A stretch of DNA of 64,000 nucleotides from Escherichia phage BF17. The stretch lies in the sequence record MW822008.1. One strand, written 5' to 3'. Shown in pieces: positions 3,471 through 61,890 of the stretch (position 1 is its first letter; every line of letters starts with the position of its first letter). The notes beneath the pieces were generated by a model. That model ran no database searches, was not told where the DNA came from, and saw only the letters and a program-made list of their open reading frames with translations. Position numbers and translations under genes: made by a program.

Positions 3471-3550
3471 TTGACTTATTTTGTCAGTACTGGCATAATG
3501 TATTCATTGGCAGATAAGCCGTAGCCCATAGGGTGCGGGAGTGTATCTAT
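3471..3550 (+). promoter_or_regulatory. Promoter (TTGACT-17-CATAAT) plus conserved transcribed element GCCCATAGGGTGCGGGAGTGTATC
   Basis: TTGACT 3471-3476, CATAAT 3494-3499, element about 3524-3550; no ORF downstream. Confidence 0.55.
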
Positions 3551-3563
3551 AGAAAAAGTAGTT

Positions 3564-3643
3564 TATTACAGTTACAATTGTGCACCCGGTGGGTTAGCTG
3601 TTGTCATGGGGTATATTATGCCAGTACTTGATAATGCTGTCAA
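3564..3643 (-). promoter_or_regulatory. Convergent minus-strand promoter (TTGACA-17-CATAAT) plus conserved element ACCCACCGGGTGCACAA
   Basis: minus-strand -35 at 3638-3643, -10 at 3615-3620, element about 3575-3595; faces the 3471 promoter. Confidence 0.55.
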
Positions 3644-5502: not shown

Positions 5503-5573
5503 CACCCGGTGGGTTAGTGACTGTTTCGTCTTGATGTAGTAATTATGCCAGTACTGGATGCACTTGTCAACAA
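5503..5573 (-). promoter_or_regulatory. Minus-strand promoter (TTGACA-17-CATAAT) plus conserved ACCCACCGGGTGCATAG element
   Basis: -35 at 5568-5573, -10 at 5545-5550, element about 5503-5518; no minus-strand ORF. Confidence 0.5.
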
Positions 5574-10267: not shown

Positions 10268-10350
10268 AGTGGTTGACTTCGGTCAGCCATTTTGCTATTA
10301 TATATTCATTGAGAGATAGCTCACTAGCCCACCGGGTGCATAAGTGTATC
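10268..10350 (+). promoter_or_regulatory. Composite module: terminator-like hairpin overlapping promoter (TTGACT-17-TATTAT) plus conserved element GCCCACCGGGTGCATAAGTGTATC
   Basis: hairpin 10271-10288 with T-run; TTGACT 10273-10278; TATTAT 10296-10301; element 10327-10350. Confidence 0.55.
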
Positions 10351-11665: not shown

Positions 11666-11730
11666 TTACCCTATACAATGTCAGTACTAAACCGTTTATC
11701 TCATTAGAATGCGTTACAGGACGTTTGACA

Positions 11731-11928
11731 ATGATTAGCATGAAATCAGTACAAAAACAAATAGAAACATTATCAAAAATTAAACGTAAACAGTACTCGT
11801 TAGAATATACAATCAATGGTAACTATCATCTAATGAAAGAGAATAATTTTATCGTCATTGATGAATCATTGCAAGTTATTAGTATAGTACTGAAAGCATT
11901 AATTAATGATAGAAAAAAATTAAAATAA
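11731..11928 (+). CDS. hypothetical protein (65 aa), AT-rich codon usage
   Basis: ATG 11731 (track start is TTG 11725); weak RBS; no promoter seen. Confidence 0.4.
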   Translation: MISMKSVQKQIETLSKIKRKQYSLEYTINGNYHLMKENNFIVIDESLQVISIVLKALINDRKKLK

Positions 11929-11932
11929 TCTA

Positions 11933-12013
11933 TTGACAATATCCTCCAGTACTGGCATAATACTTACATCAAGACGAGAACGTCACTAACCCATAGGGTG
12001 CACAAATGTAACT
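11933..12013 (+). promoter_or_regulatory. Promoter (TTGACA-17-CATAAT) plus conserved element ACCCATAGGGTGCACAAATGTAAC
   Basis: TTGACA 11933-11938, CATAAT 11956-11961, element 11988-12013. Confidence 0.55.
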
Positions 12014-12020
12014 GTATAAT

Positions 12021-12057
12021 ATTGATCAAAAAATGATCTGATCAATACTTGATCAAT
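12021..12057. promoter_or_regulatory. GATC cluster: 4 GATC sites in 31 bp, three as TGATCAA
   Basis: GATC at 12024, 12035, 12040, 12051 within the leader upstream of the TraR-like gene. Confidence 0.6.
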
Positions 12058-12259
12058 TTGCGTAAAGTAGTATAATTCTATGCAGTTGGTTAGACGAAAG
12101 GTTATGATTAGTAGTGCAAGTGTATAAAAATTTTCATGGTGTATCGTTCCGCACATATGGCAATGAATATGTGGTATCATGTGGATTGGAAAAAGTAAGA
12201 ACAAGTAATATTATTGTCGCATTACAGTACTATAGTATTTTTATAATGAGGTTAAAATA

Positions 12260-12517
12260 ATGGCTGTAGGATTCGCGAAAGATGGGGCCGAACAAGACGA
12301 GATTAACGCAGTGATTCAGGCCGCCGTTAACCACGCTAGAAAGCAAATTAACGCACAAATAGAATCACTGATACATTGCCTCGACTGCGGCGATATAATC
12401 CCTGAGAAACGACGCCAGGCCGTTAAGGGATGTAAGTACTGCATAACTTGCCAGGAGGATCATGATAGTACTTTTAAACGTCCCCCGCGTAATTGTTGGC
12501 ATAGATCTATGAGATAA
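12260..12517 (+). CDS. TraR/DksA-family C4 zinc-finger protein (85 aa)
   Basis: CLDCGDIIPEKRRQAVKGCKYCITCQ = C-x2-C-x13-C-x2-C-x2-C arrangement with IPE..RR typical of TraR; RBS GAGG. Confidence 0.75.
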   Translation: MAVGFAKDGAEQDEINAVIQAAVNHARKQINAQIESLIHCLDCGDIIPEKRRQAVKGCKYCITCQEDHDSTFKRPPRNCWHRSMR

Positions 12518-26280: not shown

Positions 26281-26480
26281 GAACAGCAGAATACATTGAA
26301 CTAATGGCTGCAAACTTCTCATCCTTTAAGAAACTGATGCAAGAATCAAAGAATGATTTAGAATATCACATCAAAAGTTCAGATTTAAGATTGCTACTCA
26401 CTCTAGGAACAGATTCCCAAGAGCGATTTGTCAATGAGCATATTAGAGCACTTTTAAATGGCATCAGGAATAAACTATGA
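26250..26480 (+). CDS. family A paralog (TLGTDSQE)
   Basis: ORF track. Confidence 0.6.
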   Translation: MHRQHTHKPLGTAEYIELMAANFSSFKKLMQESKNDLEYHIKSSDLRLLLTLGTDSQERFVNEHIRALLNGIRNKL

Positions 26481-60838: not shown

Positions 60839-61360
60839 ATGTCGAAGAAGGATGCTTCGAAAAAACATTCAGTACATTTTAGTACTGGAAAAGATAACTG
60901 GACAACTCCAAAGGATTTCTTTGAAGATTTGGATGAACTCTGGGAATTTACACTAGATGCAGCATGTGTCAAAGAAACTGCATTGTGTGATAATTTTTTC
61001 ACTCCAGAAGATGATTCACTGTCACAGGATTGGGGAAATAATATAGTTTGGTTGAATCCACCATATAGTGACTTGAAAACTTGGTTATCTAAAGCAGTAG
61101 ATGCATATAATAACGGGGCAACTGTAGTTATTCTTGTACCCTCAAGAACCGATACAATTGCTTTTCAGGATTATGCTGCTAAAATATGTGATTGTATTTG
61201 TTTTATTAAGGGAAGATTGAGATTTGGTATACCAGAAGAACCCGATAAGAAAACAGATTCAGCACCATTTCCTTCGTGTCTGATAGTACTGGATAAGTAC
61301 TTAACCACTGCTAAAATCAATTATCTTAAATCTCTTGGGTTGGTGATGAAGAATTTATGA
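60839..61360 (+). CDS. phage Dam-family DNA N6-adenine methyltransferase (173 aa)
   Basis: WTTPKDFF...LDAAC...WLNPPYS: NPPY catalytic motif plus overall pattern of the small phage Dam family; RBS AAAGGAA. Confidence 0.75.
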   Translation: MSKKDASKKHSVHFSTGKDNWTTPKDFFEDLDELWEFTLDAACVKETALCDNFFTPEDDSLSQDWGNNIVWLNPPYSDLKTWLSKAVDAYNNGATVVILVPSRTDTIAFQDYAAKICDCICFIKGRLRFGIPEEPDKKTDSAPFPSCLIVLDKYLTTAKINYLKSLGLVMKNL

Positions 61361-61890
61361 AAGAAACATGCGTATTAACTTTTGGACGTGTTAATCCCGT
61401 ACATCGTGGACATGGTTTAGTTTTTGAAAAGGCCAAAACATTACAAGAACAGTACAATGCTGATTTAAAAATATATCTAAGCACCAGTACTGACAATATA
61501 AAAAACCCACTCCCACCTGAACTAAAAATGTATTATACAGAGGGATTCTATCCTTCAGTGCAAGAGAACATCTACACAGAAGACAATCTATTTGATATAA
61601 TGAGAGAACTGGATGGAAAGTACTTAGATGTTCTTTTCATATGTGGTTCTGACCGTATTGATTCTTTTCAAAAAACTCTTGACATGTACAATGGTAAGTT
61701 GTATAATTTTTGTAGTATAAAAGCAATTCAAGCAGGTATTGACCGTAATGTAAGTCAATATAGCTCAACACAAATGCGTAACTTCGCAAAAAATGAAGAT
61801 TTTGATAGTTTTCGTGAGTTTTTACCTGGAAATGACGAGGACTTAAAAATACAATTATTTGAAGACGTTATAAAATACATGAGGAAATAA
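61357..61890 (+). CDS. nucleotidyltransferase with HxGH motif, NMN adenylyltransferase-like (177 aa)
   Basis: N-terminal TFGRVNPVHRGH matches the G(R/K)FxPxHxGH signature of NadM/NadR-type adenylyltransferases; ATGA overlap with methyltransferase gene. Confidence 0.55.
   Translation: MKETCVLTFGRVNPVHRGHGLVFEKAKTLQEQYNADLKIYLSTSTDNIKNPLPPELKMYYTEGFYPSVQENIYTEDNLFDIMRELDGKYLDVLFICGSDRIDSFQKTLDMYNGKLYNFCSIKAIQAGIDRNVSQYSSTQMRNFAKNEDFDSFREFLPGNDEDLKIQLFEDVIKYMRK

Follow-up and report, generated by a model that had tools for sequence, protein, structure and literature searches.

A conserved GATC cluster seated on promoter elements of a jumbo coliphage, and its possible role as a methylation-read operator

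Four GATC sites (starting at 12024, 12035, 12040 and 12051) fall within 31 bp of a 64,000-bp stretch of Escherichia phage BF17 (hereafter, the window), raising the question of whether they are a chance accumulation, a switch read through DNA methylation, or part of a protein-binding site in which GATC itself is incidental. The clustering is unusual, as a sequence-only reading of the same DNA had claimed: the window contains 131 GATC sites versus 203 +/- 15 in dinucleotide shuffles, and no other place in its 64 kb has three or more GATC per 40 bp. Uniform placement of the 131 sites yields at least four GATC in 31 bp with P = 0.003, rising to P = 0.007 when the calculation is limited to the first 21.4 kb, where GATC is denser. 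The three TGATCAA palindromes described in that reading need a correction. Three copies of TGATCAA are present on the plus strand (12023, 12039 and 12050), but TGATCAA is not itself a palindrome, and only two copies extend to the full 8-bp palindrome TTGATCAA (12022-12029 and 12049-12056), the third being CTGATCAA.

The genome-wide distribution of GATC, which had been named as a check on the observation, was scanned in the complete genome of phage TH47 (352,450 bp, assembled from an unannotated record), and the outcome agrees with the claim. TH47 has 581 GATC sites, 0.47 of the Markov expectation, making GATC its second most avoided 4-bp palindrome, and the orthologous cluster (5 GATC in 70 bp) is the only place in that genome with at least three GATC per 40 bp or at least four per 80 bp.

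To place the cluster in its genome, we aligned a 3-kb query around it, which matched PBECO4, SP27, JP4, 121Q, G17 and other phages of ~350 kb at 90-98% identity; by these matches, the window comes from an Asteriusvirus, a PBECO4/121Q-like jumbo coliphage. In vB_Ec-M-J, the cluster region lies within an annotated direct terminal repeat (1-21525), and terminal repeats of ~20-21 kb are described for Sharanji (PMC11895373) and G17 (PMC6563267). Compared with these relatives, the first ~21.4 kb of the window is the counterpart of the terminal repeat, with the cluster ~12 kb inside. This part of the window has dozens of small genes with a strong sigma-70-type promoter ahead of each. In these early promoters throughout window 1-21400 (for example 8029, 11139, 11410, 13145 and 14455), AGTACTG lies in the spacer directly before the -10 and is the source of the extended -10 TG; in TH47, GTAC is over-represented (observed/expected 1.37). 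GC content falls from 38% to 32% at ~21.4 kb of the window, and the observed/expected ratio of GATC is 0.85 in positions 1-21400 (GC 38%) versus 0.37 in 21401-64000 (GC 32%). Depletion of GATC is limited to DNA outside the terminal repeat, and TH47 has an equivalent peak of GATC density at 90-110 kb. The near-absence of depletion in the first 21.4 kb weakens any inference of selection drawn from finding a cluster in a genome poor in GATC. Literature on methylation or promoters of Asteriusvirus was not found beyond gene lists.

The cluster is part of an accessory cassette of 331 bp (11929-12259, plus strand) comprising a promoter (P1), a repeated box, the GATC dyads, a promoter-like element (P2) and a small gene (ORF48), flanked by 10-bp direct repeats of TTAAAATAAT (11919-11928 and 12250-12259). 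The promoter proposed earlier at 11933-11961 (plus strand) was confirmed as TTGACA-17-CATAAT by a promoter scan (score 11/12), with TG before the -10; this P1 belongs to a family of early promoters repeated in the terminal repeat. Downstream of it is the box CCCATAGGGTGC (11990-12001, plus strand), one of 10 window copies of CCCAYMGGGTGC (1097, 1313, 3525, 3582, 5502, 10328, 11990, 13929, 17202 and 19164) versus 0.14 expected; none lies beyond 21.4 kb, and both strands have copies. Some copies are ~25 nt behind CATAAT-type promoters and others directly after terminator hairpins, and two promoter-plus-box units are found in facing orientation at 3480-3640. A terminator closes the unit at 5570 (minus strand) after ~110 nt, a hint of small or antisense RNAs.

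Farther along the cassette, a TATAAT box (12015-12020, plus strand) lies 3 bp before the first dyad and is conserved between alleles, reading TATAAC in CMSTMSU and Turkey5. No credible -35 was found ahead of this box, which is also the end of a repeated box module seen at 3582 (minus strand). The cluster had been placed in the leader of P1; it is indeed downstream of P1, but it also abuts and overlaps the -35 of an internal promoter-like element, P2 (12049-12076, plus strand; TTGATC-16-TATAAT, sigma-70-like, scan score 10/12), located upstream of ORF48 and the DksA/TraR-like gene. Neither P2 nor the 48-aa ORF48 had been noticed in the sequence-only reading. The -35 hexamer of P2, TTGATC (12049-12054), is the right arm of the second dyad and holds the fourth GATC, and its -10 block GTATAATTCT is invariant between alleles. 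A common order of box, spacer and promoter recurs in the units at 10328, 13929, 17202 and 19164, with TTGCAW-16-TATAAT promoters at the position and geometry of P2 in the units at 10328, 13929 and 17202, and in these paralogous units AGTACT palindromes occupy the position of the GATC dyads. Given this shared position and geometry, P2 is predicted to belong to a family of promoters in which the GATC dyads would be an innovation of this one unit. The invariant -10 and the paralogy make P2 credible as a promoter. An AAAGG at 12097-12101 (plus strand), 12 nt before a GTG or TTG start, is the likely ribosome-binding site of ORF48.

The four GATC sites constitute two adjacent 15-bp dyads of the form GATCAA-N3-(T/A)TGATC. 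Dyad O1 (GATCAAAAAATGATC, 12024-12038) contains the first two sites and has one mismatch to GATCAANNNTTGATC; dyad O2 (GATCAATACTTGATC, 12040-12054) contains the third and fourth, and is both a perfect 6-bp inverted repeat and a perfect match to the pattern. Within each pair (12024/12035 and 12040/12051), the sites are 11 bp apart from centre to centre, with 7 bp between them. Relative to the inferred start of P2, O1 is centred at ~-52 and O2 at ~-36.

Alignment of the cassette among relatives revealed alleles of two types, A and B, that are 79% identical, type B being found in 121Q, TH47, EcMJ, Turkey3/5, CMSTMSU and EC.P1. Both GATC sites of O1 are invariant in all eight aligned sequences. 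Type B has five GATC sites: O1 in the form GATCAATAAATGATC, an orphan GATCAA at the -35, and a dyad O3 (GATCAATTCTTGATC) directly downstream of the -10, spanning ~-3 to +12. Its -35 is TGGATC only (3/6). O2 of type A and O3 of type B are embedded in an almost identical 23-bp block, TCTGATCAAT(A/T)CTTGATCAA, placed differently relative to the -10. In the most diverged stretch of the alignment, where the surroundings are ~65% identical, islands of invariant sequence remain at the GATC sites, at each of the two TATAAT boxes and at AAAGG; on this alignment, the islands are a phylogenetic footprint. All dyads begin with GATCA and end with TGATC while their central bases vary. An A follows the left GATC and a T precedes the right GATC in 7/7 dyads, which are not fully independent, since O2 and O3, being nearly one block, may have a common origin. 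Of the nine GATC sites in the two alleles, all have T, C or G on their 5' side and eight have AA on their 3' side. The retention of flanking bases, together with the 15-bp pairing, suggests that whatever reads these sites may need more than GATC.

TH47 has two perfect copies of GATCAANNNTTGATC, both intergenic, where 0.04-0.055 per genome would be expected. The second (26415-26429; ~71,300 in PBECO4) lies outside the range of the window, upstream of a homologue of PBECO4 gp102 and 9-10 bp ahead of a TAAATACCCAAGG that is conserved and similar to a -10 of the T4 late type. The variants at this locus in TH47, PBECO4 and 121Q (GATCAAAAATTGATC, GATCATATTTTGATC and GATCAAAAAATGATC) keep GATC-N7-GATC with differing inner bases; in Turkey5, GATC-N7-GATC is lost. 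Pairs of GATC 11 bp apart occur six times in TH47 versus 0.96 expected at the observed GATC density. Under a Markov-1 model, the excess loses significance (mean 3.4, with 11.5% of simulations reaching six), although this model misses the depletion of GATC. The cluster is non-random, conserved and seated on promoter elements, and it is probably a switch read by a protein or through methylation.

At a coverage of at least 80%, the cassette is found in 26 phage records. In the alignment, G17 is without it, such that the upstream ORF runs directly into the DksA-like gene; this deletion looks like the product of recombination between the 3' ends of ORF67 and ORF48 at the TTAAAATAAT repeats. Sharanji and other relatives match the cassette query at its promoter/leader end only, and at a different place in the genome. 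Judging from these records, the cassette is accessory and dispensable in related phages.

ORF48 (12114-12260, plus strand; 48 aa, phrog_38664) lies between the cluster and the DksA-like gene, its stop overlapping the start of the latter (TAATG). It is open in both alleles while the other frames are closed, and between alleles, third codon positions differ 20 times, first positions 11 times and second positions 7 times. By this pattern, ORF48 looks like a real gene, and 121Q carries it as the annotated gp293. It matches no Pfam family; modelling from the single sequence with AlphaFold2 gave four strands and a helix (pLDDT 83), a fold unmatched in the PDB at E < 0.4. ORF48 was considered as the protein that binds the dyads and rejected, having no recognisable DNA-binding fold or family. 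ORF67 (11725-11928) and ORF48 are weak paralogues (27% identity) with a common ...(K/R)LK* end.

The gene at 12260-12517 (plus strand) does encode a DksA/TraR-like C4 zinc-finger protein, as had been read from its translation (85 aa; PF01258, E = 1.6e-10; phrog_54). Homologues 64-73% identical to it occur outside the jumbo group, in phage genomes of ~170 kb (IMG/VR contigs of ~145-178 kb). Examination of 26 IMG/VR loci with DksA-like homologues, including other jumbo and T4-like phages, revealed the upstream cluster in 121Q alone, and likewise ORF48 in 121Q alone. We therefore rejected the cluster as a conserved regulator of the DksA-like gene, more distant homologues being without it.

The sequence-only reading had paired the cluster with a Dam-family methyltransferase bearing an NPPY motif, and this gene stands as described: 60839-61360 (plus strand) encodes a small N6-adenine DNA methyltransferase of 173 aa (PF05869, E = 2.3e-31, 109.2 bits versus a Pfam gathering cut-off of 28.1; phrog_111, E = 6.7e-56). 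Its NPPY (residues 73-76, nucleotides 61055-61066) aligns with that of M.Phi93DAM, the closest experimentally characterised relative found (43% identical over the full length, E = 5e-40). M.Phi93DAM, from Lactococcus phage phi93, makes G6mATC, as demonstrated by SMRT sequencing and DpnI/DpnII digestion (PMC4190342), and at 43% identity to it, GATC specificity is likely for the phage enzyme as well. Identity to the enzymes of 933W and T1-like phages (Tls) is 31-37%, and a sequence search for related solved structures found none. Non-specific adenine methylases of the Hia5/EcoGII type, which have DPPY and are related to the classical Dam, DpnM and T4 Dam (PMC3299994), were considered as relatives and dropped, not being PF05869 members. 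The stop of the methyltransferase gene is overlapped by a cytidylyltransferase-like gene (61357-61890; weak PF01467 and PF06574 matches, and annotated 'cytidyltransferase' in relatives), so the two are probably co-translated.

No support was found for the proposed link between the enzyme and the cluster. The methyltransferase gene is present in 33 Asteriusvirus records, and eight of these are without the cassette, matching it at the promoter/leader end only: G17, Sharanji, phAPEC6, UE-S1, ECO103 4-12-1, EC22.5-2, ph0011 and A4. As a core gene product, the enzyme cannot owe its existence to a cluster that is accessory. The E. coli host is Dam-positive, and host Dam would methylate the cluster sites anyway, so the cluster is not tied to the phage enzyme. 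Anti-restriction, which had also been suggested, is a reasonable role for the enzyme and has no bearing on the cluster.

What, then, would the dyads do? Their most likely role, which we put forward tentatively, is that of an operator pair gating P2 through GATC methylation in the manner of SeqA/Dam control. While the sequence shows the anatomy of the locus, its conservation and the family of the enzyme, P2 firing, protein binding and an effect of methylation are inferred, in the following way. Occupancy of the operators would be set by the adenine-methylation state of the GATC sites in O1 and O2. On incoming, fully methylated phage DNA, P2 would be free; after replication, O1 and O2 would be hemimethylated, and a GATC reader, most plausibly host SeqA, would occupy them and shut down P2 on replicated genomes. 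Alternatively to SeqA, hemimethylation might alter recognition of the TTGATC -35 by sigma-70. Host Dam and the phage's own probable GATC methyltransferase would then reset the sites. SeqA binds pairs of hemimethylated GATC sites that are on about the same face of the helix and restricted in spacing (PMC2691817). The two GATC sites of each dyad, being 11 bp apart, would lie on roughly one helical face, and 12024/12035 and 12040/12051 both have this geometry of at least two sites on about the same face at short spacing. GATC also lies in or touches the core promoter in either allele, within the P2 -35 in type A and in the dyad at ~-3 to +12 in type B. An operator over the core promoter in both alleles, with O2 on the -35 and O3 on the start, is the placement expected for repression, and with a second dyad at ~-52 in both, the layout is, on this comparison of alleles, that of a repressible promoter. 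Finally, GATCA in every half-site of three independent dyads, beyond the GnTYA of Fis, suggests that GATC itself has been selected. Against control by methylation, Dam and SeqA are not known to need conserved flanking A/T, making a more specific reader possible, viable relatives that have the methyltransferase do without the cassette, and the -35 of type B is only 3/6.

Almost as likely, though a little more doubtful, is that O1 and O2 are operators independent of methylation, in which a dimeric protein, the host nucleoid protein Fis or another phage or host regulator, reads GATCAA-N3-TTGATC as a whole and GATC is incidental. Such a protein would repress or activate P2, or block read-through from P1. 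The 15-bp dyad symmetry and the conservation of bases beyond GATC favour a protein that contacts the whole dyad, as does the position of an operator over the core promoter in both alleles, and the AGTACT palindromes at the equivalent position in paralogous units look like an exchange of operator type. O1 is the sole match in the 64-kb window to the strict Fis consensus GNTYAWWWWWTRANC, a pattern otherwise met only as a search term in one review; however, this match is not significant, 0.71 being expected and 55% of shuffles containing at least one, and a looser Fis pattern is not enriched (10 versus 14.7). High-affinity Fis sites have a 15-bp core bounded by G/C, pyrimidine-purine steps at +/-3-4 and an A/T-rich centre, with T/A at +/-8 (PMC4784862); O1 and O2 share these features, O1 having all of the core features and O2, which carries the T/A at +/-8, all except for one C in its centre, a point against Fis. 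The Fis consensus also leaves +/-6 free and accepts C or T at +/-4, yet all half-sites are GATCA, and no candidate phage regulator emerged, ORF48 being no exception. Control by methylation and control by a dyad-binding protein are not exclusive, since classical Dam switches join a binding protein with GATC sites inside its site.

The remaining explanations do without an operator. That the palindromes have no function, having arisen by local duplication or slippage of a TGATCAA block in a fast-evolving accessory intergenic region and been kept by descent, is unlikely. The near identity of O2 and O3 as one 23-bp block at different positions would fit such an origin, as would the dispensability of the cassette and its location in a mosaic, repeat-rich terminal repeat that is hardly depleted of GATC. 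It is opposed by the conservation of the GATC sites as islands amid ~65% identity, by the persistence of GATC-N7-GATC at an unrelated locus in three variants with differing inner bases, and by the improbability of the cluster in the window (P = 0.003-0.007) and its uniqueness in TH47. Highly unlikely is a site for DNA transactions, either a transcription-primed origin, in which P1 precedes a SeqA-sequestered unwinding element rich in A/T and GATC, or a packaging or recombination signal like the pac site of phage P1. The A/T-rich group of palindromes does have a strong promoter 60 bp ahead of it; oriC typically contains GATC clusters, and P1 pac clusters of TGATCA(A/G) hexamers. The cumulative GC skew of TH47 tracks gene orientation only and has no inflection at the cluster, such as the strand-compositional switch of an oriC-like origin would give; on this basis we rejected a replication origin. 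Such an origin would also have DnaA boxes and an unwinding element, and inspection by eye revealed no DnaA boxes conserved between alleles (the pair of 9-mers in ORF48 that resemble such boxes is altered in type B). Nor does the cluster mark a packaging start or genome end of the P1 pac type: the direct repeats of relatives are ~20-21 kb with the cluster ~12 kb inside, hence not at the terminus, and the element is missing from Sharanji and from the viable G17. Very improbable, and the least probable of all, is an element acting in RNA, in which self-complementary UUGAUCAA repeats in the 5' leader of P1 transcripts form hairpins that control translation or stability of the ORF48/DksA-like mRNA. 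The palindrome copies could pair with one another, and UGAUCAAUUCUUGAUCA of type B is predicted to form a 7-bp hairpin directly before the ribosome-binding site. Leader folds, however, are no more stable than those of shuffles (z = -1.8 and -0.95) and differ between alleles, Rfam has nothing at gathering thresholds across the window and only a chance-level match locally, and the dyad at the second locus adjoins a promoter-like TAAATA box rather than an obvious leader. With no Rfam family and with folds neither significant nor conserved, the RNA element was rejected.

If methylation is indeed what is read, a lytic jumbo phage would be using host-type adenine methylation as a clock that distinguishes incoming from replicated genomes, and the small, widespread phage Dam enzyme would have a regulatory role beside anti-restriction. 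An extension of this proposal, distinctly unlikely in its full form, is that the dyads sense the state of replication, turning a pre-replicative early promoter off once the repeat has been copied; SeqA or a factor of the phage would be the reader, the phage Dam would restore the sites, and TGATCA and AGTACT palindromes would be interchangeable operators. As part of the same proposal, modular early units consisting of a terminator or promoter, then the box CCCAYMGGGTGC, then a promoter would organise transcription of the terminal repeat. If the reader is instead Fis or another protein, the dyads would be where a DksA-like modulator of RNA polymerase comes under growth-phase or phage-specific control. 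The general importance of the element is limited in any case, as it is dispensable and restricted to a subset of one genus.

A separate observation concerns GCGC, which has no site in the 64-kb window and none in the 352-kb TH47 genome, where 172 (Markov) or 329 (base composition) are expected, and is the sole missing 4-mer. It is likewise absent from JP4 1-150 kb, from the EcMJ and G17 stretches, from every other Asteriusvirus stretch examined and from three more distant jumbo-phage loci; no mention of GCGC avoidance in these phages was found in the literature. Avoidance of restriction could account for the absence, as could cleavage of host DNA at GCGC by a nuclease of the phage. Together with the depletion of GATC outside the terminal repeat, it is a by-product of this analysis that may matter more than the cluster.

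Among known systems, Dam/SeqA-sensitive promoters include the dnaA promoter with its sequestration, pIN of IS10, the cre promoters of phage P1, and lambda pR, where SeqA acts. Like these, the locus has a GATC in the -35 of P2 and more GATC sites about one helical turn apart upstream, in a phage with a Dam-positive host; unlike them, it has two 15-bp dyads (two plus a half in type B) with conserved flanks, in an accessory cassette of a virulent jumbo phage. The presence of several GATC sites within putative protein sites beside a promoter is also reminiscent of switches in which Dam competes with a binding protein (pap with Lrp; agn43, opvAB and P22 gtr with OxyR; Mu mom with OxyR). OxyR binds ATAG-N7-CTAT pairs 22 bp apart, whereas the dyads of the cluster are 16 bp apart, so this geometry does not fit. 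Unlike pap, the cluster has no Lrp-like array, and phase variation is not expected in a lytic phage.

The resemblance to Fis sites lies in the G/C at +/-7, the pyrimidine-purine steps at +/-3-4, the A/T-rich centre and, in O2, the T/A at +/-8 (PMC4784862). Unlike in Fis sites, the full GATCA half-sites are conserved beyond what Fis requires, leaving a candidate site only. In the pac site of phage P1, Dam methylation of the TGATCA(A/G) hexamer clusters is needed for cleavage. The cluster shares with it dense hexamers of the TGATCA type in a phage with its own Dam-type methylase; it differs in having four sites only, no bipartite arrangement around a cut site, direct terminal repeats, and viable relatives from which it is absent. 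Small phage Dam methyltransferases of PF05869 are also found in T1, HP1 and VT2/933W. The phage enzyme is like them in its Pfam match, its NPPY, its size of ~170 aa, its having no obvious separate target-recognition domain and its 43% identity to M.Phi93DAM; it is unlike the coliphage members (933W, Tls) in being only ~31-37% identical to them, and its specificity is a predicted one. GATC-containing promoter operators are a known kind of element, to which this cluster adds a candidate example.
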